64,000 nt of DNA from Azolla caroliniana (taxonomy: Eukaryota > Plantae > Polypodiophyta). The DNA is taken from the NCBI GenBank assembly GCA_043228905.1, contig JBHGNT010000012.1, positions 17,732,001 through 17,796,000 on the forward strand, read 5' to 3'. Of this stretch, positions 3,899 to 50,596 are shown piece by piece; position 1 is the stretch's first letter; each line of letters opens with the position of its first letter. A program made the translations under genes and the position numbers. Below the pieces are notes generated by a model. That model was given only the letters and a program-made list of their open reading frames with translations. It did not search any database and was not told where the DNA came from.

Positions 3899-6281
3899 CT
3901 TCATCTGAATCCGTTTCGGGATCCTAGCCGGTTCCGGTATCAACTTCTTCTTCCTCAGCCGGTTTTGTCTCCTTACCGTCACCGGCCGGTTCATCGAGTG
4001 CTAACCGGTCTCTTGTCGGTTGGGTCTGCTCATCGTAGAATTGATCCTTACCGGTCGACTCTGAGTTCATTATCTTCTTCTTCGACTCCCAGTCGGCGAG
4101 CGTCTTGTCCTCCATGAAGATAATATCTCGACTCCGGAATACCTTCTTGTCGACCGGGTCCCACACTCGGTAGTCGAACTCATCGTCGCCGTAACTGAGG
4201 AATATGCATGGCCGGGTCTTTGGATCCAACTTTCCTCTCCGGTCCTTGGCAACATGCACATACACGAGACACCCGAACACCTTCAGATGCCAGTAGGACA
4301 CTTCCTTACCGGTCCAGACTCTCTGTGGCGTGTCTCCGTCCAAGGGTACTGAGGGTGATCTGTTTATCGCATATGTCACCGTCGACAGTGCCTCAGCCCA
4401 AAACGTCTTGGGTAGTTTTGCATGCGCCAGAATACCCCGGACCCTCTCCATTATGGTCCAGTTCATCCTCTCGGCCAGCCCGTTTAGTTCCGACGTCTTC
4501 GGTACGGTAAATTCGAGCTGGATTGCCTTCAAGCGATAGTACTCCTCGAACTGCCCCCGGTATTCTCCTCCGTTATCTGCTCGAACCGCCTTCAGTTTTC
4601 GACCGGTTTCTCTTTCCACTCTCGCGTGGAGCTCTTTGAAGATGGATAGCACCTGATCCTTCGTCTTCAACGGCGTGACCCACAACATCCGGCTGTGGTC
4701 ATCTATGAACGTCACGAAATACTGCGATCCGGCATGTGACTTCGTGTCCACTTGACACACATCAGTATGCAGCAACTCCAGTGGTGCATTTCGTCTCATC
4801 GGTGGCCTCAATCGGAAGGCGGTTCGGTTTTGCTTACCGGCCAGGCAGTCGGTGCACTTCTCAAGGTGCACGTGCTTCACTGGAATGAGGTTGTTGTCTG
4901 CAAGCCTCTTCATCCCCTTCTCGCTCATGTGACACAACCTCTTGTGCCATAGCTCATCGGCCGTGTCGGATGCCACGTTCACTTCCTCCGGACATAACCA
5001 GGCATTCATCAGGTACAAAGTGTTGACTTTTCGAGCCCGAGCCACTATCAAGCTCCCTTTGCTGAATTTCATGATGTCGTTCCGAATGCTACCCATGTAG
5101 CCTTCATCATCCAGTCGACCGGTTGATATCAGGTTCAATCGAACCTCTAGAACGTGTCAGACATCTTTCAGCAACATCTTGCATCCGGTTGATGTCGTCA
5201 ACCACCAAGGTTGTTAGGTACGTTAGGTACGGTACAGATACTATACGTATTTAACGTATTAATACCCGTATAGTACCTCCCAATTTAAAAATACGTTAAA
5301 TACGTTTTTTTTAATATGTTAAATACTTATAAAATACGTAAAGTACATAAAATACGTATTTTACGTATAGTACGTTAAATACTTCTAGAATTTGAAAATT
5401 ATTTACCTTTCTAAAAAATATCTATAATATTGTAAAAAAATCTATGTTTACACAATTTTGTGATGTACAATATAGTTCTACATCCTAAAATGCATATAAG
5501 ACATTTGAACATTTCACATCCTAAAATACTTGTCGTAATATGGATGTCGACATTCCCTTATTCTATAAATCAGTGTAAGTGTGTATCACGATGTTCTACT
5601 TCAAATTGTAATTATTTACAATTATGCCTTCATAGATTGAGGAATAGTCTACGATTATCACACTCATGATTGGTTTCTCTTTTCTTTGTTTTCTTCTTCT
5701 TCTTCTTCTTCTATCTTCTGCGATTATCACACTCAAGATAGGTTTATGTCTTCTTTTCTCTCTTCATCTTCTTCATTGTCATCTCTTCTATTCTTCTTTC
5801 TTCTTTCCTTTGGCTTCTTTTTCAGTAAAATCTTTTTTTTCTTTTGCTTTTTGTTAGGGTTTTATTTACATTTTCTTTATAAATACGTATTATACTTGTT
5901 TTTTTATAAATACGTTAAATACCGTATTGGACAAATGTACATGATATTTGACTGAACAACATTGAGGTATAGTACATACTATACAAATGATTAGGTACTA
6001 TACGTATTTAAACGTTAAATACGGGTACGTAAACAACCATGGCGACTCAACCACACATCTCCTATGCCGACAATTCGGCATGTACCTTCATTCCCCATCC
6101 GAACACGGCTGTGGTCACCGGCCGAGTAGGATGAGAAGCATTTTCTATCCGGGGTCAGGTGGAACGACACTCCGGAATTGACCACCCAGGTCATCTCATT
6201 GCTGGCAAGGTTCAGTTCACTCTCCTCGGTGATGAGCACTAGCTCCTCTTCACTTGCTGCGATTGCCGTCGTTCCTTTCCG
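3897..6281 (-). mobile_element. Copia A, distal part (protease and integrase); RT, RNase H and 3' LTR deleted
   Basis: WVVNSGVSFHLT protease; LWHKRLCHMS..CTDC, ELLHTDVC, RADNGGEY and NGLAERMN integrase motifs. Continues the gag at 16528+ once Copia B is removed; interrupted by a MITE at 5206-6041. Confidence 0.92.
5206..6041. mobile_element. hAT-like non-autonomous DNA transposon (MITE) inside Copia A
   Basis: AT-rich insert with TIRs CAAGGTTGTT...AACAACCATG (9/10 match). 8-bp duplication TCAACCAC at 5198-5205 and 6047-6054. Subterminal TACGTATTTAA-type repeats. The homologous Copia B site (~14680-14700) is uninterrupted. Confidence 0.8.
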
Positions 6282-7282
6282 TGACGAGAACTCAACGCTC
6301 GTTATGCACAACGCTCGGCCACCACCGAACTTAGAATCATACACAGAAAACAAGAAACGAAAACACGACACAAAGGAGAAGAAAAAAAGTACACAAGATG
6401 TTCACGTGGAAAAACCCAAACTAAGGGGAAAAACCACGGCAACCCACAGGCTGCAAACTATCACAATGTTGGAATGTACAAACTGTGAGTTCACGGAGGC
6501 AACGACCTCGTGCTCACGATCTTCGTCACAGGCGGCGGTTACAACAGAGGCAACAACCTCTTTCTCTCTCCCTCTCTGTACACTGTTACGTTGTCGTGAA
6601 GAAAACTGTCCCTTAGCGCAATCGGTGCATAGCGCGCGTGAACCGGCGCTTCACGCGTGCGCGCCCTTAATGTATATAATAGGGAATTAGGTACATAGAG
6701 GTATCCTGGGTAGTTAGATTCGGTAGGTAGGAAGTAAATGAGGGAGACAACTCCTTTCTTGACGCTATAAAGGAGAGGGAGACGCAGGGAGAAGGGATCA
6801 CGCATTAAGGAGGACGAAGTGCGGTCGGACCGTAACCGAACGCTTCTCCTCTGTTCGTTCTCCATCGCTCTTCTCTGCAGGTTTTCGGGAGGCTCGCGCT
6901 GCTTCGAGGAACGCCCGTGTGCTTCCGACAGCACCTCCACCCTTTTCTCCTTTCGTGCGCATACGAACAAGCATCGACATCTGTTCACCGGCCTGTTCGG
7001 TTGTAACCGCTCGCGTGTTCTGTTGTGTATTTGTTATTCGTTAATATACAAACACTTGTGTCTCCCTGTCTTTGTGTCCATTCACGTCTTCTGTGTTGAC
7101 GGGCCGTGCCCTTGTGTTTCTTTGCTCATACGTGACAGGGTGTCTCTCTCTTTCTCTTTCCCCTTCTATCACCTGCTCTTCGGTTCAAGACCCCGGTGGT
7201 CCCGCCTCGTTTCTCCACGCACGCGCGTAGTAACGCGACATATTTGGTGAACTCAACGTGAAGAGGCGGCAGAGGAGTGGAG

Positions 7283-9409
7283 ATGAGGGGGTCGGATCTT
7301 GCAGAGGCCATGGCTTTGGCCGTGGACCGGATAGTGAGCGTGCGCGAGGGCACCGGCGCCCTTGACAGGGCTATTGAGGCGATCGTCGGTATGATCGGCC
7401 AGTTCAGTGGAAAGGATGCCACGAGTTATTTGGCGTCCTACCGGGTGGAGATGTTGATGAGGGATATTTCGGAAGAGAGGCGTCTTGCCGGATTCCCTCG
7501 AGTGGCAATGCCCAACATCCATGCGGAGGTGCTCGAAGTCCGGGCAGAGAGCTGGACCTGGGAGGAGTTCGAAGGACGGCTCCTGGAGAAATACGGGCTG
7601 GATGACGCGCTTTGACTTTCGAAGCGGGGCTTCATGGAGTGGGTGGAGTCCCCCAACAAAGGAAGAAATGCGTCGGTACTCCTCTAGGAGTTTGAGGAAC
7701 GCTTTGCGCACCTTTCGGCGCTCGATCGGACCGTTCTGGACACAAGTCGTGTCCTAATGTTTGTCAAATTGGTTGACGCACGGGATCGGGGGCAAGTGGG
7801 CTCATTACTGGAAACCGAAGACGGGCTGACGGCCGATTGGGCCGCGGTAAAAAGAGTCTGTGGTTGTTTTGACAAACGGTGGGAGTGGGCTAATACAGAG
7901 GCGACCGGGGCGGGACCTGTCGCAGCAAGGAAGCTTGAACCGATACCGCAGGCGCAAAGGGAAGAGACCCGGGAGTGGCTCGAAACCGGTTCGGCTCCGA
8001 CCGGCGTGGTCAGAGGCTCGTCCAGGGGAACAACTTTGGAGGAGTTGACACGAGTGGTAAAGGATCTCCAGATCGCCCAGGCTCGGAGGGAAGGCAGCGA
8101 TCAGGCTCGTGACCGACGGCCTCCGGCAGGAAGTAGGTGCATGTGGTGCGACGAGGTCGGCCACATCCGGAAAGACTGCGGGGACTTTACGGAGGCTTTG
8201 AGAAGCCGGGTAGTGTACTTTTGGGAAGGTCGGGTGCACGCCAGTGATACCCGGAGGGCCCTGAACCGAAACAACGGGCGAGGAGGAATGAAAAGGCTGA
8301 TGGAAGAGGCGGCAACCCGGCACGCGGAGACCGTCCACTACTCAGCGTCAGCCGGTATTCGGGTCGGAGGCAGCGAGGCCCGGAAGGAGAGCAAAGCCGG
8401 GTTCGGGCCGATGGTGCTGGAAGGCCTCGCCGGTGCCCGACTAAAGAGAGACGAGGCGGACCACGCGGAGAAGCGGGTCCAGGAGGTAACCGGGTGGAGT
8501 GACCCGGTCGAAGAAAAGACGGGTTTCGTCGAAGCAGCTTGCCAGAACTACAAGGCTCTGGTTGAAGACAAACGGGTAGGTAAAACCGGAGGGGCCGGAC
8601 CCTCACAGAGATACGAAACCCGATTCGGGCCGAAACGGAACGAGGGCGGTGAGTCCAGTGCCCGGGATAACCACAAGAAGGGCGGATACCGTTTGGGCAC
8701 GGAGATCGAAAGGACCACGGACCTACGAAAGGTCCTGGAAGAACGAATCCTCGACAGCAAAGTGGAATTGTCGTTGCGGGAGGTGCTCGGGATCGCCAAG
8801 AAGGAGTTCCTTGACTCCATCGTGGACTTGGTGAAGAGGAAGAGGCTGTCGATGGAGGCAGAACCGGAAAGGCCGGTGGAGGTGCGGACGGTGCACATAG
8901 AGGACATGGCGCTGGAAGACGAGTGGGCGGAGAGCCACTATTCGAGGCCACACTGGGCCCGAGCGACCACGGAAACCCCGGTGAAGATCGGAGATGTTTA
9001 GGAACCGGTGGTGGCGTTGGTGGACCACGGTTCGAAAATAAACCTGATGTCCATGGACTTCTACAAGAAGGGGAAATGGCCGATCAACACTAAATACGGG
9101 TGGAAGATACGAGCAGCGACACGCGCCACCGAGGAACTACATGGGGCCTACCCAAACGTGTGAGTCAAGATCGGCGACGTCGAGATAAACCAACACTTCT
9201 TTGTGCAGGAGACGTCCTCGCACCCGGTCATACTGGGAGAACCGTACGTTACAGCAGTGCGAATGGAGACCAAGGTGCTGGACAACGGGTCGGCTTACGC
9301 GAGGGTCAAGAGTCAGGACGGGCGTCATTCGGTCCAGTTCCTGACGGTGCGACCGAACCACGAGCGAAACCGCGAGTCCCTTGGTGGTGAGAACCGAGAG
9401 GATTTTTAG
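7283..9409 (+). pseudogene. gag-pro: Gag-protease ORF of element T (one frame, 4 premature stops)
   Basis: ORFs at 7277, 7757 and 9203 share one frame; stops at 7613, 7685, 8999 and 9161. Zinc knuckle CMWCDEVGHIRKDC; protease ALVDHGSKINLM...VILGEPY. Confidence 0.85.
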
Positions 9410-9465
9410 AGAGGGCTGCCAAGGCGTGGGGCCGCGACAGTCCGGACACTCCGGGAAAACCCCAC
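9400..9465 (+). promoter_or_regulatory. Putative -1 programmed ribosomal frameshift signal (slippery heptamer plus pseudoknot)
   Basis: G_GAT_TTT at 9400-9406 followed by TAG. Stem 1 GGGCTG 9413-9418 / CAGTCC 9438-9443; stem 2 GTGGGG 9426-9431 / CCCCAC 9460-9465. The -1 frame is the RT frame. Confidence 0.75.
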
Positions 9466-11593
9466 AAATGTACGATAGAAGCGAAACCGAAGAAACCTTG
9501 TACCATAAGTAGGAAGTTTTGTTTCTCCGACAATGGAGGGTGTACGATAGTCGGCGTCGTAGGCCGAGAAAAGACAAGGGCGGAAGAGCGACTTCGGGCG
9601 TGCAGAGTTCTCGGGCCCAACGAGGAAATCAACGGAGCCGTGGAGGCGGTCTCCTTCGACGATACCTTGGGAATATTGCGAGAGGTGGTCGGAGAGGGCC
9701 TTAAAGAGGACCGGACGATACCGGTTTGTTCAGAAGAGATGTACGAAGTCATCGCGGACTTCAGTTGAGGGCTCAAGTCGGATCGGACGGCCCGGGTTAA
9801 CACGAAGTACAAGATTGTGGACCGGAAGGTAAGGCCAGTCGCGGCACCCTTACTGGAGGGCAGCGAGTTGCGAATCAAGGGGGTCGCGTCGGACCCCAGT
9901 TTACGAGATCCGGCCTACATAGACGCCTTCACCGACAGAACGCTATGGGAGCTCAAAATCGGTGGGGGCGGGTTCCTACTGCCGGCGGAAGAAGACCGGT
10001 TTCGGAGAATGCTCGGAAGGCACGGGAAAGCCTTCGCATTCTCGCCGGGAGAGATCGGGTGCGTAGACCCGGCAGTCGTAAAGCCGATGGTGATATTCAC
10101 GGTACCGCATGTGCCGTGGAATCTCAAACCAATTCCGGTACCGAGAGCTCACATCCCGGAGCTGATGGAGCTGATGGAGCTGTTAAGGCAGAAAGTCGAT
10201 ATGGGTATCCTCGAACCGTCAAGTGCCCCGTACTCGAACCAGTGGTTTACCGTACCGAAGAAGAACGGGACGTTGCGCTTCATTCAAGACCTGCAACCGG
10301 TCAACAGAGTGACTATTCAGAACGCAGGAATCGGACCAACGATAGACGAGTTCGCGGAAGCCTTCGCCGAAAGGTCGATCTACTCGGTCGGTGATCTGTA
10401 CTCGGGGTACGATCAGTTCCAACTAGCCGTAGAGAGCAGAGACATTACGACGATGCGGACTCCTCTCGGCCTAGTGCGGATGTGTACCCTGCCACAAGGA
10501 GGGACGAACTCGGTGGCCCACATGGTGAATGCGATGAACAAGGTGCTGAGGGATTGTATCCCGGACATCACCATGCCATTCTTGGACGACATCCCGATCA
10601 AGGGATGTCCGGTGGAGAAAAAGGACGAATGCCGGAAATTCGTGGCGACACACATTGACGACTGCGAGAGGGTGCTGCAGAGGCTAGAGGACGCGAGGCT
10701 CACCTTCTCCGGGGAGAAATCGGCCTTCGGGCAATCAGAAATCATGGTCGTCGGACATCTATGCGGACCGTATGGCCGGAAACCGTCTCCGGCTAAGGTG
10801 GAAGCCATCTTCGCAATGAAGCCCGACTGTAACTCGATCATGGAGGTACGAAGGTTCTTGGGAGCATGCGCGTTCTACCACATATGGATTTCGCATTACG
10901 CCCACGTTGCCGAGCCACTATACGGGTTGCTGAAAAAGGGGCGAAAATTCGAGTGGCGAGACGAGCATACGGAGTCAGTCCGAAAGATGAAGGAGGCTCT
11001 TGCTGCAGCTCCGGCACTCCGGAAGGCTATCTACGAGAAAGGCACTCCCATCTACATAACGGTAGATACAAGTCCGACCGGGATCGGATGGGTCGTCAAC
11101 CAAGAAGATAAGGACGGCATTCGGTTCCCAATCCGGTTCGGCGCGAAGGTCCTCAGCGAGCGACAACGAGGATACACCCAGGTTAAACGCGAACTCTAGG
11201 GTATCGTTTCGACGGTAAAGGCCGACAAAGACTATCTGATCGGGACAGAGGTGATTATCGAGACGGACTGCCTGCCGATTCTCGGCATGGTTTCCGGATG
11301 CGCAACCTCGGACCTGGCAATGCTCACGTGGATAGCGTACATCAAGTCCCTGGATCCGGAAATACGACACATTTCCGGGAAAGACAATGCCATGGCCGAC
11401 ATGCTTTCGAGGGCGCGATTCGACAACGAGGGCGGCATGGTTTCAGAGGACGAGGAAGTCGGCGTGGACTTCTTCGAGGCGGCTTACGTAACAACCGAGG
11501 GGGGGAGCACTCCGGCGCTTAGCGATTTCAACGAGAGCAAGTACGACGGGGAGTGGCTGTAGATTGGGGGATTCTTGAGGACGATGACGCCGG
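9400..11593 (+). pseudogene. pol: Pol (RT-RNase H) of element T, in the -1 frame relative to gag-pro
   Basis: TKYKIVDRKVRPV, WFTVPKKNGTLRFIQDL, DLYSGYDQ, LPQGGTNSV, FLDDIPIKG; RNase H ITVDTSPTGIG..IETDCLP..NAMADMLSR. In-frame stops at 9766, 11197 and 11560. Confidence 0.9.
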
Positions 11594-14500
11594 AGTACTC
11601 CTCATCCGGTTCTCACCGGGTCTACGTCATCCGGCTCTTCGTAGCCGGGTACTCCTCATACGGTTTCGGCCTCGGCCTAGTTTGTTCATCAGCACTAGTC
11701 TTCTCCCTTCCCATCCGGAGGGACCTGTCTCCCAACAAACTCCCCCTTCACTCCGGCATGGGGTGTCCTACTAGTCTGATCCTCTTCCGGCATGCATCCA
11801 GCTTGTCGGGTATTAGCACTTTGGTCAGCATATCTGACCCGTTCTCGGCCGTGTGGATCTTCGTCAGTGCGAACTCCTGGTCATCTACTCTTTCCCGGAT
11901 CCAGTGAAATCTTCGCTGGATATGCTTCGTCCGGGAATGATATGCCGCATTCTTAGCAAGATGGATGGCACTTTGACTGTCACAATAAAGTCGGTATTCA
12001 TCTTAACGGATACCGAGCTCTTCGATGAAGTCCTTCATCCATAATATTTCCTTGCCGGCTTCCACAACTGCCATGTACTCCGCCTCCGTGGTTGACAATG
12101 CAACCGTCTTCTGCAGCCTCGATTGCATATGTCATTACATACCCGGATGTAGACTGGCTGGTATCCACATCAGCCGACATGTCCGAATCGGTGAAACCGT
12201 CAAGTTGAGGTTTTCCGGAGCCGAATCGGAGACACATATTTGAAGTGCCCTTCAAATACCGGAGTATCCATTTGACCGCGTTCCAGTGCTCTTTGCAGGG
12301 ATTGCTCATAAACCGGCTCACCACTCCGACTGCGTATCCAATGTCCGGTCGGGTACAAACCATTGCGTATATGAAGCTCCTGACGGCAGAGGCATATGGA
12401 ATCTTCATCATATCCGCCTTCTCTGCTTTCGTCTTCGGGCTTTGCTTACCGGATAACTTGCAGTTTGCCGGAAGTGTCGATCCGACCGGTTTCGCATCTG
12501 ACATGTTGAACCGGTGAAGCACCTTTGTCACGTACTTCTCCTGTGACAGCCATAATTGCTTCGCTGACCGGTCCCAAATGATGTGCATCCCCAACATCTG
12601 TCTTGTCGGACCCAAGTCTTTCATTGAGAAGGTTCGGTTGAGAGCCTTCTTCAGCATCCATATTTTTACTTGGTTTCGTCCGACGATCAACATGTCATCC
12701 ACGTATAGGAGGAGTATCAGGAAGTCGCCTCCTTCGAACTTCTTCACAAACACGCAATGATCGGCCTGCGTCTTGTGGTACCCTTGATTGGTCATGAAGG
12801 AGTCGAACTTCTGGTACCATTGTCGGGGGGCTTGCTTCAACCCGTAGAGGCTCTTCTTCAACCGGCAGACCAGGTGCTCCTTCCCTTTCTCCACGAATCC
12901 TTCCAGTTGCTGCATGTAGATCTCTTCTTCGAGGTCACCGTGAAGGAATGCCATCTTCACGTCTAGCTGCTCTACCTCAAGGTCCATGCTTGCCGCTATA
13001 CTCAGCACCGTCCGAATGGAGGTCATCTTTACTACCGGGGCAAATATCTCGTCGATGTCCACGCCCCTTCACCACGATCCTGGCTTTGTATCTCAGGGGG
13101 TTGCCGGCATCTCCCGGTTTCAACTTGTACACCCACTTGTTTCGGAGTACCCGCTTTCCTTTCGGCAACTCCACCAATTCGTACGTATGGTTCTCATGCA
13201 GGGAATCCATCTCATCCTGCATGGCACTTAACCATTTTCGGTTGTGGGTGTCTTCCTTCGCTTCTTCGAAGCTTTCCGGCTCCCCCTCATCGGTCAGCAG
13301 AACATGATCTACATTCGGAAATCTCCGGGGGGGCCTTCTCTCTCTGAGAGGATATCTCCGTCTCTGGGCTTCGGTTACTGGCTCATCCATCTGCTCTTCA
13401 TCCGAATCCGATTCACGGTCTTGGCTGGTTCCGGTTTCAGCTTCCTCTACTTCTTCTTCAGCATGTTCGGTATCCTCACCGTAACCGGCTGGTCCCTCGA
13501 GTGCTAACCGGTCTCTTGCCGATTGGGTCTGCTCATCGTAGAGTTGATCCTTACCGGTCGACTCTGAGTTCATTATCTTCTTCTCCGACTCTCAGTTGGC
13601 GAGCGTCTTGTTCTCCATGAAGATAATATCTCAACTCCGGAATACCTTCTTGTCGACCAGGTCCCACACTCGGTAGCCGAACTCATCGTCACCGTAACCG
13701 AGGAATATGCATGGCCGGGTCTTTGGATCTAACTTTCCTCTCCGGTCCTTAGCTACATGCACGTACGCAAGACACCCGAACACCTTCAGATGCTGGTAGG
13801 ATACTTCCTTACCGGTCCACACTCTCTGTGGCGTGTCTCCGTCCAAGGGTACTGAGGGTGATCTATTTATCACATATGTCGCCGTCGACAGTGCCTCAGC
13901 CCAAAACTTCTTGGGTAGTTTTGCATGCGCTAGCATACTCCGGACCCTCTCCATTATGGTCCGGTTCATCCTCTCGGCCAGTCTGTTTAGTTCCGGCGTC
14001 TTCGGCACGGTAAATTCGAGCCAGATTCCCTTCGAGCGATAGTACTCCTCGAACTGCCCCCGGTACTCTCCTCCGTTATCTGCTCGAACCGCCTTCAGCT
14101 TTCGGCCGGTTTCTCTTTCCACTCTCGCATGGAGCTCTTTGAAGACGGATAACACCCGATCCTTCGTCTTCAACGGTGTGACCCACAACTTCCGGTTGTG
14201 GTCATCTATGAACGTCATGAAGTATTGCGCTCCGGCATGTGACTTCGTGTCTACTTGACATACATCCGTATGCACCAACTCCAGTGGTGCATTACGTCTC
14301 ATCGATGGCCTTGGTCGGAAGGAGGTCCGGTTCTGCTTACTGGCCAGACAATCAGTGCACGTTCTTCACTGGAATGAGGTTGTCGTTTGCAAGCCTCTTC
14401 ATCCCCTTCTCGCTCATATGACACAGCCTCTTGTGCCACAGCTCATCGGCAGTGTTGGATGCCACGTTCACTTCTTCCGGGCATAATCGGGCATTCATCA

Positions 14501-15863
14501 GGTACAGTGTGTTTACCTTCCGGGCCCGAGCCACAATCAGGCTCCCTTTGCTGAACTTCATGACACCGTTCCGGATGCTACCCATGTAGCCCTCATCATC
14601 TAGCCGACCGGCTGATATCAGGTTCAGTCGAACCTCCGGAACGTGTCGGACATCCCTCAGCAGCAACTTGCATCCGGTTGGTGTCGAAAACCACACGTCT
14701 CCTATGCCGACAATTCGGCATGTACCTTCATTCCCCATCCGGACACAGCCGTGATCACTCGCTGAGTAGGATGTGAAGCATTTCCGGTTCGGGGTAAGGT
14801 GGAACGACGCTCCGGAGTCTACCACCCAGGTCATCTCGTCGCCGGCAAGGTTTATCTCACACTCCTCGGTGATGAGTATCAACTCTTCTTCACTTGCCGC
14901 GATTGTCGTCGTTCCCTTCCGGTCCGGCCCCCTCCGGTCTTTACCGTTCCCGTCCGGGGTTCGCTTCAAATCGGTATCGTCGGTCTCCTTATCTTTTCGG
15001 AAATGCCGACAATTCTTTTGCAAGTGTCCCGGCTTGCCGCAATAGAAGCAAGTGGGCCTCCCCCTTGACTTTGACCGTGTCCCCGACTTCTCCCAGTTCT
15101 GGGGACTACGGTTTCTCTGTCTTCTGCGTTCTGATTCGGTAAGGAGCGCCTTGGAGTCGGAGCTCGTATCTTTATCTTTCCGACGCGCCTCCTCATCTAG
15201 CAAGCTCGACCTTACTCTTGCTAGGGATAACCGTTTTCCTTCCGGCCCGGCGTTGCCCAAAGTTACAACCAACGTCTCCCAGCTATCCGGGAGGGAGCCG
15301 AGCAGGAGTAGTCCTAGTACCTCGTTGGCGAGAGGTACTTCCAATGAAGTTGCCTGGTGTATCAGCCCCTGGAAGGCATTCATGTGCTCCGCCATGCTGG
15401 AGACATCTTGGTACCGGAGTCTTACTAGCTTTCGGAATACCGAAACCTGATTAACAACATTATTGTTTTGGAACATTATGCCGATCTTCTCCCAGAGCTC
15501 ATGAGCCTTGCTCTCTTCATTGAAGTTGTTGTATAGGCTCATGTCGATGAAGCACCGTATGTACGCCGTTGTCTTCATGTGCATCACCTTCCATATCGCG
15601 GCGTCTATTTTGTTCGGTCTCTTGTCCCCGAACTGAACCGGCAACCAGAGGTCTTTAACCACGAGCATGTCCCTCATCTTCGACTTCCACACTGAATAGT
15701 TGGAGCCGGTGAGCTTGAACATGCCGCCAAACGATTCGTCCATTTTCTGTGTCGTTTTGCTCTGATACCACTTGACGAGAACTCAACGTTCGTTATGCAC
15801 AACGCTCGGCCACCACCGAAGTTAGAATCATACACAGAAAACAGGAAACGAAAACACGACACA

Positions 15864-15965
15864 AAGGAGAAGAAAAAAAGTACACAGGATGTTCACGTGG
15901 AAAAACCCAAACTAAAGGAGAAGAAAAAAAGTACACAGGATGTTCACGTGGAAAAACCCAAACTA
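15864..15965. repeat. 51-bp tandem duplication in the Copia B 5' LTR
   Basis: Two copies here; single copy in the 3' LTR (~6372-6422). Confidence 0.9.
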
Positions 15966-16281
15966 AAGGAAAAAACTACGGCAGCCCACAGGCTGCAAAC
16001 TATCACTATGTTGGAATGTACAAACTGTGAGTTCACGGAGGCAACGACCTCGTGCTCACGATCTTCGCCACAGGCGGCGGTTACAACAGAGGCAACGACC
16101 TCTTTCTCTCTCTCTCTCTCTCTGTACACTGTTACGTGCTCTCTCTACTTCTTGCACCAACAAGAAAATAACAACCACTACTAAAAGTTTGCCCTAAGTC
16201 ATATTTATACTAATATAACTTTTCGACTATTTACAAATATAGCCTCGATGGACTCTCAGAAACATATTTACGAATATGTCT

Positions 16282-16450
16282 CTTCATCCGGTTCTCACCG
16301 GGTCTGCACCATCCTGCTCTCCGTAGCCGGGTACTCCTCATCCGGTTCTCACCGGGTCTGCGTCATCCGGCTCTCCGTAGCTGGGTACTCCTCATCCGGT
16401 TCTCACCGGGTCTGCGTTATCCGGCTCTCCGTAGCCGGGTACTCCTCATA
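16282..16450. repeat. 54-bp tandem repeat (~3 copies) in the U3 region of the Copia B LTR
   Basis: TCATCCGGTTCTCACCGGGTC... at 16284, 16338 and 16392. Confidence 0.9.
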
Positions 16451-16527
16451 CGGTTTCGGCCTCGGCCTAGTTTGTTCATCAGCACTAGTCTTCTCCCTTC
16501 CCATCCGGAGGGACCTGTCTCCCAACA

Positions 16528-17986
16528 TTCCGGTCTTGCGCTCGCCGATCCGAACCGTTTCGGTCCGTGGCTCCCCGGTAAGCACCATTTCGTTCCGGTG
16601 ACTTCTTCGAATAGGTATTGTCGGTTTACTTGTCCTTCCGGAAATGCCGACAGTTCTTCTGGAAGTGCCCCGTCTTCCGGCAGTAGAAGCCAGTGGGCTT
16701 CCCCCTTGACTTTGACCGTGTCCTCGACTTTTCCCAGTTCTGGGGACTCCAATTCCTTTGTCTTCCGCGTTCCGATTCGGAAAGAAATGCCTTTGAGTCG
16801 GGGTTCGAGCCCTTGTCTCTCCGACGCGCCTCCTCGTTTAGGATACTTGTCTTCACCGTCTGTAAGACAAGTTCTCTTCTTGGCAGGAGGTGCTGAGAGT
16901 AACCACCAAGTTCTCCCAACTTTCTGGCAAGGTACACATCAACATGATTGCCTGCATTGCATCATCCAAGGGGAACTTGATCGCCGCAAGTTGATTTACA
17001 TACCCCATAAATGTGTTGATGTGTTCTACCATACTCTCATTGTCCCGGTACTTCAGGTTCACAATTTTCCTCATCAATGAGGTTCTGTTCAGAGCGTTCT
17101 TCCTCTCATATAGACCCGACAGCTTCTGCCACATCTCATGGGCATTCGTGTCGTTCGCCACGTGCTGAAGGACACTTACGTCGACGCATTGTCGGATGGT
17201 GGCCACGACCTTTCTGTTCAGAAGTTTCCACTCCGACTCCAGTACCCCTTTGGGTATTTCGGCTCTGTTGATCAGTTCATATAGGTCTTTTACAATGAGA
17301 AGGTCTTCCATCTTGATCTTCCAGTCGGCATAGTTCTGTGAGTTAAGAACCATCATTCCCGGGAGTCCGCTCCCGCCTCCTTCCATTTTCTGTGTTTTCG
17401 CTCTGATACCAGATTGATCGGATGCTTGTCTCCAACTATGCTCGGTCACAGCCTAGATGTTGGATCAATCACTGAAAACAGGGATGTGGAGAGGTGTAAC
17501 TACACACGAAACAGTAAAGAAAAGAGTGCAATGGATGTTAACGTGGAAAACCCGAATATGGGAAAAACCACGGCAGCCCTCAGACTGCAAAATATCACTA
17601 TATCAAGATTACAACAATGGGGCACAAAGGCAACGACCTCTTGCTCCCTCACTTCGCCACCAAGCAGTTATAACAAAGGCAACAACCTCTTCCTCTCTCT
17701 CTCTCTCTCTCGCTCTCTCTCACTCTGTACACAATTACACTCTAAATTATCGTCACACAACGATAATAACACAACCAACTCAATACAAAGATTTGCCCTA
17801 TGTCATATTTATACTGATATGACTATTCGGCTATTTACAAATATAGCCCCAATGGGCTCTTAGGAACATATTGATGAATATGTCCCTTCATCCGGTGAGC
17901 ACTCCTCACCGGGCCTGCATCATCCGGCGGATGCCGGGTCTTGTCGGGCCTTGTTCATCCCATCCGGAGGGACCGATATCCCAACA
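16528..17986 (-). mobile_element. Copia A, proximal part (5' LTR, PBS, gag)
   Basis: LTR 17986-17415 (TGTTGGGA...GATCA); iMet PBS 17411-17400; ATG 17386; gag motif NYADWKIKMEDLL...LPESWE; decayed CCHC. Confidence 0.92.
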
Positions 17987-20900
17987 TTCATGACCAGCCA
18001 CTGTGTCAAGGACACTATCCGTGAACGGAAGAGGAAACCCATCCATGCCTGTTGTGGCATTGAGTTTGTGGTAATCAACGCAAACACAGATTTTCCCGTT
18101 TTTCTTGGGGACGACGACGATTGGGCTTAACCATGTGGCTCTTTTTACTGGGCGTATAAAGCCTACTCGAAGGAGTTTGTCGATTTCCTCTTTGACCTTA
18201 GTCGCGTAGTTGGGGTTCATACGGTACCATCGTTGTTGGATCGGCCAAGTGTCCGGCAGGAGGTGTACTTGGTGTTGGTAATATTGGGGATCCAATCCCT
18301 TCATATCAGTGTAAGACCATGTGAATACATCATGATACTCCGTGAGCAGGCGTATCAGGGCTGACCGTTCGTCGGCGGGTAAGTTATTAGCGATTTGTAG
18401 TGTACGCAGGTTCTCGTCGGAGCCGAGGTTCAGTGACTCAAGTGTTGATGCTTTGACTCGCTGGGAGATGGCGAGTTCTCGTTCAAACGCGTCCCGAGCT
18501 TGTCGTAATTCTGTGATAGTTGTGGAATCAGCTTCCTCCTAGGGAAGGGAATATGTCGTGACATCCTCGTCCAGTGGTGTGCCGAAACCCGAAATGGCGT
18601 TTATTTCAAAAAGGGGTATGATAGTGGGATGATCTTCCAGGAAGTCATCAACCTCTTCGTCGGCTAAGCCGTCGAGCATGTGTACCCCTACCGCGTATAA
18701 GGGTGTAGTGTTGTGGGGCATGGTGAGGCGTTCTTCTGTTATTACTTGTACCTTGGTCTTCCCCCGGCGGAAAGAGATCATATTCCGTTGCCAATGTTGT
18801 TTAATATTTGTTGTGCGCAGCCAGGGTCGGCCAAGCAGCACTGGGTAAGCGCCCGGAGCTTCGAGGCGTAACACGACTGCCGAGAAAGTAAACATGTGGC
18901 CGCCTAACGTGAAATCAAGGTGGCGGATTAACCCGATGGGGCAAACTGATCGCGTATTGGCCATCCGAAGCCAAAAGGGGCACGGTTCCCATTGGTTGAG
19001 GCCAAGGGCGTGACATGTGGCCTCGCTGATGACATTCACACCGGAACCACCGTCGATTATGCATCCATGAAGGTCTCGTCCTTTAATCATGATTTTCACG
19101 GCTGGATTCTGGGAATCCATGAGGGGTGGGCCCGTCCCTGGCTCCGTCAGGTTAACAGGGGGTGCGACCAATTTGTCGTTAGTCGTGAGCGTAGCCAAGG
19201 TATCCCGAAAAGCGCAACATGAGCGGTAAAAGCTTATGTAATGGCAACGAGATCCTAGCGCTGGTAAGAGCTTCCCACATATGGTCATCTTCTGCCGCAG
19301 TGGATGGTCATGTGGGCGGTGGTGCGCCGATGGTCACGTCCCGCATCTCTGTGTGCATCCGTTCCACGTTGCTTTTATTGGCGGTCTCAATCCATTCCTT
19401 TGCTGCTTGTCGGACGTCATCTTGTTCTTGCCATTGGCTGGCTTGGGTCTTGCTACGTATAGTGACGTGTTGAACGTCGGCCATAATAGTATTCACGATT
19501 GGGGCCTTGTTGCGGTCCGTGGTTGGGCATTGGGTAGCGTAGTGGCCAGGTTGGTTACACTTAAAGTAGGTAACAGATGTCGAGTTGCTGGTGTCACTGT
19601 GCTCAGTGTGTGGGAAAGGTTGTGAGTGGTTCCCAGCCGCTTGTGTAGGCGTGTTGGCCCGTGATGCGTTGTGCGGGACAGTTGGAGGGGGATCTCGACG
19701 ACGATTGACGTTTTGTTATCGATTGTTACGTGAACCTTTGTAAGAGTTTATTCTATCGTTTCGTGAATACTGTTGATCGTACTGGTCATCCCGGTCGTCG
19801 TCATACTGATCATACTCATTGTTTGTTCTATATTGGTCGTCGTGGTACTGGTCACGACAGTCGTCGTTGCGACGGTAGTCGTCGTCGCGGCGCTAGCGAT
19901 CCGGAGAGTGTGGTCGCTCATTTGCCCGATGTCGGTATGACTGACGTTCATCCTACCAGGAGTATGTATTGCGAAGCTCGATCTGGCGAACCGGAGCCAT
20001 CGTTGTGCGGTTGAGCATGTTGTACTCACATTGTTCGATCATGTGAGCTCAGGACTGACATATTGGGCAGTGTGGCCGGTGAGGGCACTCGAGAGCCAGA
20101 TAGCCTAAGCCTAAGCAGGTCGTGCATTGGAGGGCTTGTTGGAAATGATTATCCTCCTGAGGAAGGGAGTTGTGCAATGAGCCCATGGAGAAAGCCGTGT
20201 TATGTTGTGTCCTATGATCTATCGATGGTGAGGACGCGTGCGATGACTTGCTCGATCGTCTGGTTAGAGAAATTGGTAAGTGCGAGAGTCATCCGTAGAG
20301 GGTCCCGTAGGCTGGACAGGAAGGTATCCGGAATGTGATGGGCAGAAACATCGTCGGCCAGTTGTCGGTAGAGATCCTGAAACCGGATCGTGAACTGGGC
20401 GACCGTCTCGTGAGGTTCTTGGCTCATGGAAAAGAAATGCCAGAGTAGTTCGCGCTTCGGAACTTGGCGATGAAATAATTCTAGAAACTTTGTTCGGACG
20501 TCTTGGAACGTTGTGACCTCCCCCATGTCGAGGTGGGAGTACCATCGAGTAGTCGGGCCATCGAGGGATAAAGTGAACTCTGTGATTTTAGAGGACTCGA
20601 TTTCGGCAGTCGATAACAGTTGTGTCGAGTGGTTGGCATATCATGTGGACACGAAAGCATGGATGTGTGATTCCGCGTCGGGGCCGTCGGTATATCGTGG
20701 GTAAGGGTAAGGCATGGTATCGAGATCCGGATCTTCAGATAAACCCAAAAAAGGGTTAGGGTCAGGTTGGTGACCTCTAGAGGACTCGACGGGGAGGTCG
20801 GTGTGGAATCAACTCGCAATTGGGTATCAGGTGGCGAGGATTGCGACTGGTGAGCCTCTGATAGTTCCTGGAAAGATTGGTCAATGAGCGTTGAGTCGGA

Positions 20901-21036
20901 AGTTTCTTCAATTGGCTCTAGGCGTCGGGCAAGTGGCCGAGACCGCGTGATGCGATTGGGCACCATACTGGCGGCTGGGGTTTGCCTCCTACGTAGTTCG
21001 TTGTGACCTTACAGTTGTAACTGGGCGTGCCAAATT
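17987..21036 (-). mobile_element. Ty3/Gypsy element D (gag, PR, 5' part of RT), decayed, interrupted by Copia A
   Basis: PBS TGGCACGCCCAGT at 21032-21020 (tRNA-Arg type); gag FLELF...QEPHETVAQF; protease IIDGGSGVNV..LLGRPWL; RT WLSPIVVVPKKNGKICVCVDYHKLN..FPLPF. Confidence 0.88.
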
Positions 21037-21173
21037 GTGTTAACCATTTCTGGGGAAACACCTTCGATGAGCCCACAGGCTATCGGTATCAAGGGATCAT
21101 GTTACGTGGATGATCCCTTGATACTGATAGCTTGTGGGCTCATCAAAGGTGTTTCCCTAGAAACGGTTAACAC
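21037..21173. repeat. 64-bp-arm inverted repeat with a 9-nt loop, at the LTR position of Gypsy D
   Basis: Arms 21037-21100 and 21110-21173 with 5 transition mismatches. Confidence 0.92.
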
Positions 21174-23493
21174 CTATGTTCATAGCGAAGATATGTGGCC
21201 CATGGTTTTCACGTAAAAACCTGTGTATTGTGTATTCTCTATCAACTTCTTGTTTTATGTTTCCATGTTGTGCATTTCAGTCTATCTTTCTCATAGATCT
21301 ATGGTCAAGCTACAACAAATCTTATAGCGTGGGTGACTCGGCCACATGTCCCAAGTCGAACTAGACCGGCTAATGGCGATCGGCTACATCCCGAAACTCC
21401 AGACAAATACGGACTTCTGAGAGCATTGTCATTATGGGAAACGAACCCAAAGTCCGCACTCTCTCCACTATGAGATGGTATGACAACCCCTAGAGCTTGT
21501 GTATGCCAACATTTGCGGGCCAATGCCCGAAAAATCTCTAGGAGGCTCCCGACACTTCATCTCATTCGTAGATGATTGTACACGGAAGTTCTAGGCCTAC
21601 TCAATTAGGTCAAAAGACAAAAGCGTTCAAGGTCTTCTCTCGATGGTTAGCCGAAGTGGAGAACTGATTACGGCACTGAGTGAAGATACTCTGGTGTCAT
21701 GATGTTTTCGACACATAGTGCGAAACCACCCTCAAAAGAGAATAAAATAATAGTTCAAATAAACTAATGTTGTGAAGTCAAATATTATAATAAATAAAAG
21801 GATAAAAAGTTAGAGGCGGGTTTTCAAAAGTAGAAAGAGGAGAAAAAAATAGGAAAAAAAAGTTAGGCGTGGATATGAGGAATAAGGTAGAGAAAAAAGC
21901 TCATAATTTCCTCGTCCGATGTCCAAATTAGAAAAGAAAATATTCATAAGAAAGCTAACATGAAGGGCTTTCCAAATATACCTTGCATGTCAATTTGAGC
22001 TTACAAAAGAGAAATAATGATAGAAATAAAAAATGCCTCATATAGACAAGCTTTTTTTAGGAGAAAAAAAAAAGCAAGCCATAGAAAACAAATAAATAAG
22101 AGCTATTCTTAAGAAGAAGGGGGGGATGGATGGGGATTTGAAGAAGAAAAGATTTATGTTTCCTTTCTCATACTCTTATACCCTTAAAAGGGAGATAGAA
22201 AAAAAATTTCATGTAACAAAATAAGTCCATTAGATTGATGATTTAGTAATAAAAAACTTTCTATGTTTCCTCTCTCATACTCTCTTTGTTTATCTATAAG
22301 TATAATTAAGTGTTATTCATACTCTCTTACTCTAAGCATTCTTACTCATAAGCATACACAAGTATTATTCGATCTCGCATCTCGCATAATCTCTTACTCG
22401 AAGCTTTTCTTGTGCATAACTATAATTAAGTATTAATCAATCTCTCATACTATCTTACTCTTATTCGAAGGAAATATCTCGTCTTAAAACTTAAAGTGCA
22501 TAAATCATTTAGCCCTAAATCCTTCCGGTCTAGAACCTCGACAGTTCCACTACACAATCCACACTAGATGGTAGATTTTCACGACATAATTAAGTGGTGA
22601 ACCCGACGTGAAGAGGCGGTAGGAAGGATTCAAGTGCTTGAAATAGAAGATTAGAAGATGGCTTCTTCGACAAACACCCAAGTTGATGAAGTGGCGAAGT
22701 TGGTGGCTATTGTCGAGCATATGATGAGAGCTCATGATAATGATGCAAGATTAGACAAGGCCATCGACCGGACCGTTGAGAAAGCAGGCCAATTTGGTGG
22801 AAGAAATACTACGGATTTCCTCGCTACATACAAGACAGAGACGCAACAACGAGATGTCATCGAAAAGAAACAAATATCAAGCTTCAAGCATGTCGTGGAA
22901 AATGGGTTACAAGGCCATATAATGGAGATTCAAGTCCCCCAAACAACATGGGTGGGATTCGAAAGGGCACTTTTGGCCGAATATATGCTTGAAGATGCAT
23001 CGAGGATGACTCGACACACGTTGATGAAGTGGATCAAGAAGAAGGGGAAGAACATGAACGCGTTGGAGGTGTACAACGAATTCGACCAAATGTACAATCG
23101 TCTCTGAAGCACCGACCAAATGTTTCTCAAAGGAGATAAGGTTCTATAATTCTTAAATGCGGTGGATGCGAAAGATAGACGAGAACTAGGTAGTCTATTA
23201 GAGGAAGAAACACAACCCAATGGTCTCATAATAGATTGGGTTGCGGTAAGAAGAGCACGTGACTAGTTCGACAACTGTCGTCGATGATTAGATGATTCCG
23301 ACATGGCGGGGTCGATAGTTCAAAGATGGAAGTCTCCAATAGTAACTGAGATGTCAAAGCAGAGTGAGTCGACCGAAAGAGCAATGGAGGACAACAACGT
23401 CAAGATGAAGATGGCTATGGACGACACAACAAAGGCGGATGATGAGCATATTTGAACACACTAGTTCTAGAGACCTGCGCAATTGTGTTTGAG

Positions 23494-24498
23494 AACCAAT
23501 GTAATACTCAAGAAAAGGAAGGTGACAACGAGGAAGCAAAGGTCGAAGCCGATGCGTACGATGAAGAGGCAAGCATAGTTGAGGCATCCTCGATAGAGAA
23601 GTTCAATAGGTACAATGCCCATGAGTTTGAAGAGATGGCCACAAATAATGACTTAGAGGTAGAGGTGTCTATGTACAACATAATGAAGGAGTACGACAAG
23701 TGTGTCGGGACTTCCTCCCCACTATTTCAAGAGATTTGGGCAATGGTGGAGGGGGACATATCGGTGGGTGGAAAAAGGGCCATCACCAAAGAGTCATGCC
23801 CAAACCAAATTAAGACCCAAGAGAATTAAGGTGGCGGTGAGGAAACAAAGGTTGAAGCTGATGTGTATGATGAAGAGGCAAGCATAGTCGAGGCATGCTC
23901 GATTGAGAAGTTCAATGGGTACGAGGCCCATGAGTTTGAAGAGATGGCCATGGATAACGAATTAGAGGTAGAGTTGGCTATGTACAACACAATGAAGGAG
24001 GACAACAAGTGTACCGAGACTTCCTCCCCACTATTTCAAGAGACTTGGGCAATGGTAGATGGGAACATATCGGTCGATGGAGAAAGGCCCATCACCGAAG
24101 AGACATACCCGAACCAAATTAAGACCCAAGAGAAGGAAGGTGCCAGTGAGGAAGCAAAGGTCAAAGCCGATGTGTACGATGAAGATGCAAGCATAGTCGA
24201 GGCATGCTCGATGGAGAAGTTCAATGGGTACGAGGCCCATGAGTTTGAAGAGATGGCCATTGATAACGAATTAGAGGTAGAGTTGACTATGTACAACACA
24301 ATATAGGAGGACGGCAAGTGTATTGAGACTTCCTCCTCACTATTTCAAGAGACTTGGGCAATGGTAGATGGGAACATATCGGTCAATGGAGAAAGGGCCA
24401 TCAGCGAAGAGACACACCCGAACCAAATTAAGACTCAAGAGAAGGAAGGTGGCGACGAGGAATCAAAGGTCAAAGATAATGCATATGATGAAGAGGTC
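23494..24498 (+). repeat. 309-bp (103-codon) tandem repeat, ~3.2 copies, encoding a Glu-rich sequence
   Basis: AACCAA(A)T anchors at 23494, 23803, 24112 and 24421. Confidence 0.93.
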
Positions 24499-24946
24499 TG
24501 TGAATGTTAATGTGCAAAAGCGTCAGACATAACCGGCTCAGCCGGATAGCAACAGAAAATGAGATGAAGGTTTAATGGAAAAGCTTCAAAACACAGAGGA
24601 GACAAAGAGAGCAGAACATAAAACTATATTCAAAAAATAACTCTAAAACTCTGTAGATACAACGTGCTAAACAACATTATTTATACAAGTCCATAAAGGA
24701 TTGACAGAAGTACTGACAGGTACTTCAATGCTCACAAGTGCAACTGACACTAACTACGAGACAATGATTACCTAGTAGTCTAGGCTACTACAAGGCTTCC
24801 GATTCCCGCTCGAATCCGGCTCTCCGATCCGACTCCCCAATCCGGACGGTTGTTCCCGGATACTAATCTAGCTCATCCTTTCGGATGCCGATCTGGCTCA
24901 GGCGTATTCAGCCGATCCGGATCTAGTTGAGCTTGCTCGTTCAACA
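24499..24946. mobile_element. Solo LTR (448 bp) inserted in element F
   Basis: TGTGAA...TTCAACA termini; 5-bp TSD AGGTC at 24494-24498 and 24947-24951. Confidence 0.88.
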
Positions 24947-25519
24947 AGGTCAAACAATGCACAATGGTGCACGACGAGGGCCAAACGAACGAAGTGAATT
25001 CGAATGGGGTTCCTTGGGATTTGATCACAATATCCAACTCGAAAGAGGCATACCATGAAAACGGACGAAGTGGAAAACATAAAATGTGGTCATCTAAGGG
25101 CCTAAATGTGCGCATGTACTTGAAGCATGGGCTACGAGGAGTAGTCAAAGTCAATGTTAGGATGAGGCCTAACAAAGACAAGCTTGGATTGACGGAAGAA
25201 GGAAGATTGAAGTGCCTTGACCATGAATATGGTCGGAACGAAGGCGGCACATGCATGGTGCATGAAGGATTATGCTTGGGGAAGGTGGAAGAGGCCACGA
25301 CAATCAGTCGTGGTGGTGCAAAGCTCGGACAAAGGATTTGGTGGTTTGGATTGCTTCCCTAGCTATGGTAGAAAAAATGGTTGTGGTGGCATTGGAAGAA
25401 GAGAGATAAGGAGCCAATGAGTTGGTTCAAGGTCAATCTCTATAATTGATAGTTAGGTTATGAAGAAAGGAAAATATTAGGAAAAGGATTAAAGATTTCA
25501 ACTAGGATGATGCAACTCA

Positions 25520-25721
25520 ATACCACACCTAGCACATGCCGAAGGATGTGCAGGTTTGGTGGGGGTGGATGTCGTGATGTTTCGACACATAGTGCGAAAC
25601 CACCCTCAAAAGAGAATAAAATACCACACCTGGCACATGCCGGAGGATGTGCAGGTTTGGTGGGGGTGGATGTCGTGATGTTTCGACACATAGTGCGAAA
25701 CCACCCTCAAAAGAGAATAAA
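25520..25721. repeat. 101-bp tandem duplication of the PPT and 3' LTR start
   Basis: ATACCACACC... at 25520 and 25621; LTR start TGTCGTGATG at 25570 and 25671. Confidence 0.92.
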
Positions 25722-26268
25722 ATAATAGTTCAAATAAACTAATGTTGTGAAGTCAAATATTATAATAAATAAAAGAATAAAAAGTTAGAGGCAGGTTTTC
25801 AAAAGTAGAAAAATGAGAAAAAGTAGGAAAAAAAGCTAGATGTGGATATGAGGAGTAAGGGAGAGAAAAAAGCTCATAATTTCCTCATCCGATGTCCAAA
25901 TTAGAAAAGAAAATATTCATAAAAAGCAATAACACGAAGGGCTTTCCAAATATACCTTGCATGTCAATTTGAGCATACAAAAGAGAAATAATGATAGAAA
26001 TAAAAAACGCCTCATATAGACGAGCTTTTTTTAGGAGAAAAAAAGCAAGCCAAAGAAAACCTATAAATAAGAGCTATTCTTAAGAAGAGGGGGGGATGGA
26101 TGGGGATTTGAAGAAGAAAATATTTATGTTTCCTTAAAGGGGAGATAGAAAAAACAAATCATGTAACAAAATAAGTCCATTAGATTGATGATTTCGTAAT
26201 AAAAAACTTTCTATGTTTCCTCTCTCATACTCTTTTTGTTTATGTATAAGTATAATTAAGTGTTATTC

Positions 26269-26754
26269 GAGCGGTATACCGACCCGCACTCCTTGCAAAG
26301 CCATAAGGCAAACCCTAAATGTGATGCTAATATACTATGGAGGGATTACACCTGAGTGTAGAATCCGCCATCATGAGGTGATTGCTAATCACGGGCCTCC
26401 GGTGGTTGCGTAGTTCACGCTTGTAACTGGTGTGACGTTTGCAATCGGTATACCATCCACTCGCGGGTGACCGCCAACCACTTGTTGGGGATCAATGTGT
26501 AACACATTCCTACCTACCTTGACAACTCACATGCCATGAGTTTTGTGGTTGCCTGGATGCTTCAAGCATTGCAAGTTAATCGTGCTTGAGCCAGAACAAT
26601 ACTGGGATGGGTGACCTCTCGGGAAGTCCTGGTTACATCTACGATAGTAATGGGTTCGGGGGGGCCCATTGCTATCAAGAGTGGACACGCTCCATATTCG
26701 AGCGGTATACCGACCCACACTCCTTGCAAAGTCGTAAGGCAAACCCTAAATGTC
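26269..26754 (+). mobile_element. Cassandra-like (5S-containing TRIM) insert in the 3' LTR of F, circularly permuted
   Basis: Absent from the 5' LTR. ~55-bp terminal direct repeats with 431-bp period; contains a 5S rRNA-like segment. Confidence 0.7.
26574..26639 (+). pseudogene. 5S rRNA-derived segment (A box to C box, internal Pol III promoter)
   Basis: AGTTAATCGTGCTTGAGCCAGAACAATACTGGGATGGGTGACCTCTCGGGAAGTCCT aligns with the 3' half of plant 5S rRNA (AGTTAAGCGTGCTTGGGCGAGAGTAGTACTAGGATGGGTGACCTCCTGGGAAGTCCT, recalled); 5' half absent. Confidence 0.9.
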
Positions 26755-42000: not shown

Positions 42001-42341
42001 AATTCCACTCTTATTTGTGTTGGTAGAATCCTGAGCCTGCTGTGACGTTCGATACAGTCCCCAATGTGAAAAAGCAGCATGAGGTCAATGTTGGTAAGAA
42101 GAAATGCCCCCCTACTCTGTTTTCAAGTATTAAAAAAAAGAAAATTCCATTTCTTTTGTCATCTAATCTCATGTTTTTGGATTAGATCCCTTATTAATGA
42201 GCTAGACAGATTGAGATTGAGACTTCATTTTCATCGAACATTGATTACCAAAATCTTTTTAAAACCTTTGCTGCAGGTATTTCCAACTCTTTTGGGTTTG
42301 GAGGCCATAACTCTGTAGTTGTATTTGCTCCTTATCGATAA
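39031..42341 (+). CDS. KASI: Plastid 3-oxoacyl-ACP synthase I; exons 39031-39145, 40111-40475, 40600-41031, 41231-41404, 41592-41705, 41805-41906, 42027-42093, 42277-42341
   Basis: Transit-peptide-like N-terminus (SFDGLK); APKRETDPKKRVVITGMG; catalytic STACAT, INCHATST and GHCLGAAG; C-terminal SNSFGFGGHN; all introns GT-AG and in frame. Confidence 0.96.
39525..39975. repeat. Complex tandem duplications in KASI intron 1
   Basis: AACATTTGTACTGCTACAGAACCATGC x3, nested within a larger ~190-bp duplication. Confidence 0.85.
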
Positions 42342-50268: not shown

Positions 50269-50559
50269 TCTTCTTCTCTCCCTTCATTATCCCCTTACAA
50301 AAAAACATTATAGAACAGGAAAATAAAATAAAAGACCCCCCCCCCCCCCACATTATTTGAAGCTCCCATTGCTTGCCCCCCCCTCCTCAAGGAACAGGGG
50401 AATCAGAAGAAGAAGAAGCAGAAGAAGCAGAAGGAGGAGGAGGAGCAGAAGGAACAGAGGATGCCCTTCTTCTCCTCTTTCAACGATTCTCTGCTCCTCT
50501 CCTTTTAACCCTAAACCCTAAACCTTCGGTCTTTGCACAGAGAAACCTCTTCCTCCTCA

Positions 50560-50591
<32 letters not shown>

Positions 50592-50596
50592 TCACC

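Follow-up and report, generated by a model that had tools for sequence, protein, structure and literature searches.

How does a retrotransposon translate its reverse transcriptase (RT) when that enzyme lies out of frame with the protease (PR) before it? The question is raised by a Gypsy element, a long terminal repeat (LTR) retrotransposon, on the forward strand of Azolla caroliniana contig JBHGNT010000012.1, in a stretch of 64,000 nucleotides (nt) that we call the window and by which all positions are numbered. An earlier note, made from the sequence alone, had proposed a -1 frameshift on the heptamer G_GAU_UUU, stimulated by an H-type pseudoknot. The element belongs to a Gypsy family of high copy number and is itself decayed; the site in question is the junction of its gag-protease and pol. 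In relatives of the element we observed directly the frame offset, the heptamer, its spacing from a downstream stem, covariation within that stem (stem 1) and a pol frame open as far as RT. Judged from this conservation, it is very probable that the heptamer and the co-varying stem 6 nt downstream drive programmed -1 frameshifting after the protease. The junction is conserved and apparently undescribed so far.

Frame offset and heptamer at the protease-RT junction

Relatives were taken from a metagenome scan, of which 80 of 176 confirmed loci were used, giving 81 sequences with the window. The stop of the PR frame was seen in 73 of these and RT as well in 61. Relative to PR, RT stood in the -1 frame in 59 of the 61, in the -2/+1 frame in two and in the same frame in none, and the pol frame ran without stops from the site to RT in 59. 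Pfam RVT_1 and RT_RNaseH were matched in the -1 frame behind PR in the window too, where the earlier note had placed RT. The motifs it had described, namely GGATTTT at 9400-9406 with the TAG behind it, stem arms at 9413-9418/9438-9443 and 9426-9431/9460-9465 and the TGA triplets at 9388 and 9766, were all found at these positions.

Intact relatives consist of two overlapping open reading frames (ORFs) of about 710-830 and about 1150-1190 codons, the second carrying RT, RNase H (RH) and integrase (IN). The overlap measures 10-121 nt; in 15 loci an upstream stop in the pol frame sets it to 10-13 nt, which pins the position of the shift to the heptamer. The family is present in very high copy in DNA contigs of four runs (5,352-7,125 contigs per run), and about 98% of the contig depth carries another letter at the 9388 TGA. 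The overlap of about 16 nt that the earlier note had bounded by this TGA is therefore an accident of decay, private to the window copy. Other copies mostly lack the stops at 8999, 9161 and 9766 as well. The substitution table for these contigs holds the 40 best-supported of 202 entries, and invariance of the cassette is not readable from it.

The site and its stem were located in 68 of 73 junctions. The heptamer is GGATTTT in 58, GGATTTC in four, GGGTTTT and GGTTTTT in two each, GGTTTTC in one and another sequence in one (G_GAU_UUY in 62 of 68); the alternatives G_GGU_UUU and G_GUU_UUC are of slippery type too. A review passage lists G_GA and G_GU as -1 site variants, with G_GA in umbra- and dianthoviruses (PMC5009743). 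Among 20 representatives with less than 75% identity, the first G is retained in all despite ten different amino acids (background of G at third positions, 27%), and the Asp codon at the site is GAT in 16 of 16 (background 67%). A stop follows the heptamer immediately in 60 of 68 junctions (TAA 27, TAG 22, TGA 11) and one or five codons later in eight, so the earlier wording of a heptamer followed by a stop applies to most of the family only. The core of stem 1 begins 6 nt past the site, or 5 nt where one extra pair forms. In -1 programmed ribosomal frameshifting (PRF) the usual distance from the site to a 3' structure is 5-9 nt. The family thus has the layout of -1 PRF: an overlapping -1 ORF, an in-phase heptamer variant and a 3' structure at the usual distance.

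At the protein level, among the 120 listed of 213 Gag-PR homologues, the C-terminus is DF in 59, PL in 21, GF in three and NF in two; the PL ends are mostly DF or GF followed by five residues, models from Riccia, Physcomitrium and Adiantum included. Among representatives at the 50% level, 80 of 132 newly listed proteins cover the protease end; 39 of them end at most six residues from a D/G/N/V-F motif, eight are fused and 33 have other tails. Named relatives all come from non-seed plants, that is mosses, liverworts and ferns (Physcomitrium, Riccia, Calypogeia, Adiantum). A search of viral contigs for relatives found none. Prokaryote genome contigs held two stray loci, L081, which fits the -1 pattern, and L082, which has no junction; both are plant-type retrotransposon contigs and probably represent contamination of prokaryote assemblies.

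The N-terminal ORF does have a protease at its end. A structure model of the close relative P0285 (predicted local distance difference test score 83.6) matches Ddi1 and retroviral proteases with E ~1e-6, and Pfam Asp_protease_2 was matched in seven of 25 relatives. The protease motif is DHGS, that is D-H-G and not D-T/S-G, in 108 of 110 motifs, and more distant relatives have DSG or DTG. Speculatively, the D-H-G motif may make the protease weak and so favour a high output.

RNA structure and rival explanations

Structure was tested in 50 distinct junctions, and shuffle tests were run on 49 of these, leaving out L021, which has an extra T. Stem 1, given as 6 base pairs (bp) in the earlier note, is conserved and measures 8 bp in the family. 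Pairing holds in 97.3% of its cells, and six of its eight pairs show two-sided (compensatory) changes; slid-register controls for the whole structure give 34-54%. RNAalifold recovers stem 1 unaided, and in 47 of 49 junctions the stem outdoes synonymously shuffled sequences in which the pol protein is preserved (p<0.05; p=0.008 for the window). In L081 a stem of different sequence stands at the same offset. Conservation among relatives, which the earlier note had proposed as a check, was borne out for the slippery site, the -1 offset, the spacer and stem 1, and supports its interpretation of the junction as a probable point of recoding.

From the sequences, the junction is likely to fold as an H-type pseudoknot of stems 1 and 2. 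Stem 2, a helix between the loop and downstream sequence, has 4-10 bp and lineage-matched arms in 49 of 49 junctions, 11-16 nt after stem 1, and exceeds the mean of the shuffles in 46 of them. When arms were swapped among 20 representatives, cognate pairs scored 15.85 and swapped pairs 13.35 (permutation p=1.5e-4). The pseudoknot of the earlier note therefore appears sound in its first stem, and moderately supported in its second, collectively and not per sequence. It is accordingly possible, if unlikely, that the shift is real and its stimulator a plain stem-loop, that is stem 1, often extended inward, with stem 2 incidental to the encoded W-G...P residues. Taken singly, no more than 11 of 49 junctions have a stem 2 that is significant against synonymous shuffles. 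The register of its 3' arm shifts (fixed columns are 73.9% paired), and the cognate arm comes out best in just six of 20 rows; in several lineages stem 1 reaches 11-13 bp and leaves a 7-nt loop, and RNAfold gives competing inner pairs. Against the stem-loop stand the presence of a lineage-matched helix in every junction tested and the result of the arm swaps. A further CCGGA-CAC-UCCGG hairpin of the earlier note is present in the window; it was rejected as a conserved part, with 42% of cells paired and no covariation.

In the mechanism that we propose, most ribosomes would terminate and release Gag-PR. A minority would pause at stem 1, probably with stem 2 as an H-type pseudoknot, with tRNA-Asp and tRNA-Phe on GAU UUU, and the tRNAs would slip back one base onto GGA UUU, giving Gag-PR-RT-RH-IN. 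PR would in this way be made one-to-one with Gag, and RT and IN would be rationed.

It is highly improbable that the stem serves as an initiation element and that pol is produced separately, whether through internal initiation or termination-reinitiation. The stop does adjoin the structure, and some members, including both with the -2/+1 offset, have an AUG near the junction. However, an off-frame AUG is common by chance (13 of 20), the first Met of the pol frame ranges from residue 2 to 110 among the 20 representatives, and the heptamer is conserved at synonymous positions.

A slightly smaller probability still attaches to Ogre-like splicing, in which an intron would correct the frame offset. 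It has in its favour that database gene models join PR to RT in 15 of the 120 listed homologues (13 Physcomitrium, one Riccia, one Adiantum). We read these as artefacts of predicted introns because the skipped stretches differ between models, a reading made from the proteins and without their DNA. Splicing would leave the heptamer and the fixed spacer unexplained, and the linker between the site and RT, stop-free in nearly all sequences as given above, is conserved as protein. The junction is moreover covered continuously by 176 poly(A) reads from three runs of one study, at a depth of about 8-21 (the reads cover about 12% of each run, and some may stem from DNA carry-over). The spliced transcripts that the earlier note had named as contrary evidence were not among them: at this low depth no splice joint and no one-base indel was listed, the only listed deletion being an in-frame one of 6 nt at 9478.

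Least probable of all is an offset produced by polymerase slippage on the T run or by a private indel in the window copy: GGATTTTT does have five T and the copy is decayed, but the offset is family-wide, which refutes a private indel, members with GAT TTC or GTT TTC have just three or four T, and no one-base indel was listed in the RNA reads, which have low power here, nor any indel at a share of at least 8% in 8950-9850 of the DNA contigs.

Several observations nevertheless weigh against frameshifting. No site was found in five of the 73 junctions (L007, L016, L029, L069, L076). Host sampling is narrow, as 76 of the 80 metagenome loci share one accession series, and the shuffle and permutation statistics treat related sequences as independent. 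The joined gene models count here too, as does P0332, a distant single-member protein (44% identity) in which a single ORF spans PR, a linker of full length and RT, and which may be a natural variant or a mutated copy. Finally, the RNA evidence is thin, since the reads are few, come from one study and carry a species label other than that of the best-matching DNA runs.

A clade with a -2/+1 offset

The two members with RT in the -2/+1 frame, L050 and L057, each carry an intact pol ORF in it (1181 and 1106 codons, respectively), and their -1 frame shuts immediately or within five codons. They are 80% identical in Gag-PR and form sisters (100/100) among the -1 elements in the RT-RH tree, which is midpoint-rooted, has 39 rows (43 sequences dereplicated to 31, and eight named proteins) and omits the Physcomitrium RT pieces as too short. 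Their Gag-PR ends, QVFD and QVFY, recur in six of 15 listed and two of four cluster members, which makes a single assembly error unlikely. A Calypogeia protein, known from protein alone, also ends in VFY; when the clade itself was made the centre of a search, no third member came up.

At both junctions (L050:2835-2914 and L057:2497-2576) the site is AG_GUU_UUU, which permits A-site re-pairing at -2. It lies five bases ahead of the stem 1 core, against six in the -1 members, and both elements retain an 8-bp stem 2. Spacers 1-2 nt shorter convert -1 into -2 shifts in vitro, according to the passage available from PMC3458567. [quoted passage not shown]

We give roughly an even chance to the combined reading that a lineage spread through bryophytes and ferns uses a pseudoknot-driven -1 shift, and that this one clade has been converted to an RNA-structure-driven -2 shift. 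In such a conversion the site would have become AG_GUU_UUU, one base nearer the same pseudoknot, with the post-slip geometry unchanged. The offset would need -2 or +1, and slippage by +1 is the corresponding rival. The -2 reading is weakened in that just two subfamilies are involved and in that many -1 members add one pair to stem 1, which brings their effective spacer to 5 nt too. L068, which has G_GUU_UUC, a 6-nt spacer and a -1 frame, fits the role of the spacer and implies that the site alone does not decide slip size. If true, the -2 conversion would show in nature what spacer shortening does in the laboratory, and the mRNA-tension model of slip size could be tested on the -1 and -2 sister cassettes as a naturally occurring pair.

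Classification, window copy and surroundings

The family probably corresponds to Phygy of REXdb. According to the REXdb description (PMC6317226), Phygy is a non-chromovirus of non-seed plants with a tRNA-Trp primer-binding site (PBS; 81%), an NCGN target and a short, coding-dense interior. Physcomitrium homologues are 60-68% identical to our family in the protease, and four pol ORFs gave RT, RH and integrase families only in Pfam, and neither a chromodomain nor any additional domain (no profile specific to aRH was used). The Phygy entry, sampled from Physcomitrium only, gives the ORF organisation as 'ND' (PMC6317226); here it is resolved as GAG-PROT overlapping RT-RH-INT, with relatives also in Riccia, Calypogeia and Adiantum, which fills a stated gap.

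The same source lists no lineage with a prevailing PROT/RT overlap, gives GAG-PROT, stop and RT for Retand and Ogre, and reports overlapping GAG/PROT of unstated direction for Tcn1, Selgy and SIRE (PMC6317226), so that ours may not be the first -1 shift among plant elements. The remark of the earlier note that most plant LTR elements use one ORF or splicing understates these layouts. Retand and Ogre (Tat) share with our family a break between GAG-PROT and RT; that of Retand is a single in-frame stop and that of Ogre a spliced spacer, both carry aRH, and no frameshift is listed for either. The junction described here would be a third way for a plant Gypsy element to separate Gag-PR from RT. A passage of a 2016 review knows only +1 offsets in plant elements, and no description of a PR/RT junction with a defined signal was found in the literature covered, which excluded subscription journals, Repbase reports, a 2003 recoding survey and the full REXdb element table.

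Among viruses, the layout resembles that of the alpharetroviruses (Rous sarcoma virus, RSV, and avian sarcoma/leukosis virus), which have PR in the Gag frame and a tRNA-Trp primer. They also use a -1 shift with a pseudoknot stimulator, at about 5% in RSV (PMC5009743). A review passage, in contrast, puts the protease of these viruses in pol. Ours is an LTR retrotransposon with no envelope domain seen, a G_GAU_UUU heptamer and a D-H-G protease, and the resemblance is inferred to be convergent. Beta- and deltaretroviruses (mouse mammary tumour virus and human T-lymphotropic virus) likewise shift by -1 between PR and RT, but they need an additional gag-pro shift, whereas Gag and PR share a frame here. 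Umbra- and dianthoviruses (RNA2 of pea enation mosaic virus, and red clover necrotic mosaic virus) use G_GAU_UUU with a stop nearby on plant ribosomes; their stimulator is a bulged stem-loop with long-range loop pairing, in contrast to the compact local stem, probably an H-type pseudoknot, of this family. On plant ribosomes, the family may offer -1 frameshifting a substrate that is chromosomal and of high copy number, together with dozens of naturally compensated variants of the stimulator, and it would explain the odd 'spliced' PR-RT gene models in moss, liverwort and fern annotations.

Features of the window copy are collected in Table 1. Gag, the zinc knuckle and PR do share one frame, as the earlier note stated, but that frame is not open, as stops stand at 7613, 7685, 8999 and 9161. 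Its pol frame was described as open from 9391 through the N-terminal RT motif save for the TGA at 9766; that stop is mostly missing elsewhere in the family, as noted above, and further stops lie at 11197 and 11560. The element ends at 11594 without integrase or 3' LTR, and the copy is dead. The ACGT at its 5' flank is also carried by an empty Copia LTR at 16119-16150, an observation on one insertion only, whose 3' end is missing. Of 73 sequences scanned, the window among them, 43 have the 18-mer PBS motif ahead of gag, with 16-18 of its 18 positions matched. We take it to be of Trp type from the plant tRNA-Trp sequence and the Phygy entry, no tRNA having been found here; a tRNA gene matching it was sought in viral contigs and not found. 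The linker of about 125 amino acids between the shift site and RT (9410-9800) shows conservation at the protein level among relatives and matches nothing in Pfam.

Table 1. Coordinates of the Gypsy element in the window
Feature	Position	Strand	Basis or remark
Target-site flank ACGT (NCGN type)	6588-6591	+	Inside Copia LTR; 3' copy lost
5' LTR, TG...CA	6592-7240	+	Sequence; similarity to locus L002 begins at ~6587
Primer-binding site, tRNA-Trp type, two decay changes	7245-7262	+	Conserved 18-mer motif
Gag-protease frame, four stops	7283-9409	+	Intact homologues of 700-890 amino acids; DUF4100
CCHC zinc knuckle, C-X2-C-X4-H-X4-C	8138-8179	+	Seen in translation
Retropepsin-fold protease (predicted), unusual D-H-G motif at 9023-9031	8960-9360 (approximate)	+	Structure model, Pfam, motif counts
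Slippery heptamer G_GAU_UUU	9400-9406	+	Sequence, family conservation
Gag-PR stop TAG (9407-9409) and 6-nt spacer	9407-9412	+	Direct stop in 60/68 junctions
Stem 1, 5' arm	9413-9420	+	Covariation, RNAalifold, shuffles
Stem 1, 3' arm	9436-9443	+	Covariation, RNAalifold, shuffles
Stem 2 (probable), 5' arm, within stem 1 loop	9426-9431	+	Pairing counts, shuffles, arm swaps
Stem 2 (probable), 3' arm	9460-9465	+	Pairing counts, shuffles, arm swaps
Extra hairpin, not conserved	9442-9454	+	Probably outside core signal
Pol in -1 frame, cut off before integrase at junction to Copia LTR piece	9403-11594	+	
Pol parts: ~125-aa (amino acid) linker, RT, RNase H	RT ~10252-10758; RNase H from ~10954	+	Pfam RVT_1, RT_RNaseH

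A second, non-autonomous relative lies at 21692-27019. Its LTR-like repeats stand at 21692-22583 and, with an interruption, at 25667-27019; it has the same PBS (22595-22612) and what is left of a gag, while three tandem repeats of 309 bp take the place of PR and pol. No PR/RT junction is in view in this second PBS-bearing element. Copia elements, nested and in tandem, occupy 3900-6591 and 11595-17900 on the minus strand and include 54-bp repeats (16280-16455); it was into one of their LTRs that the Gypsy element inserted. At 17909-21008, likewise on the minus strand, follows a Gypsy element of another lineage, truncated to gag, protease and the start of RT, and behind it a 64-bp inverted repeat at 21037-21173. 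Host exons, which by eye from their translations we presume to resemble a bZIP factor, a KAS II-type synthase and a Tab2-like protein, lie at 30640-31371, 40564-42023 and 50522-51205.

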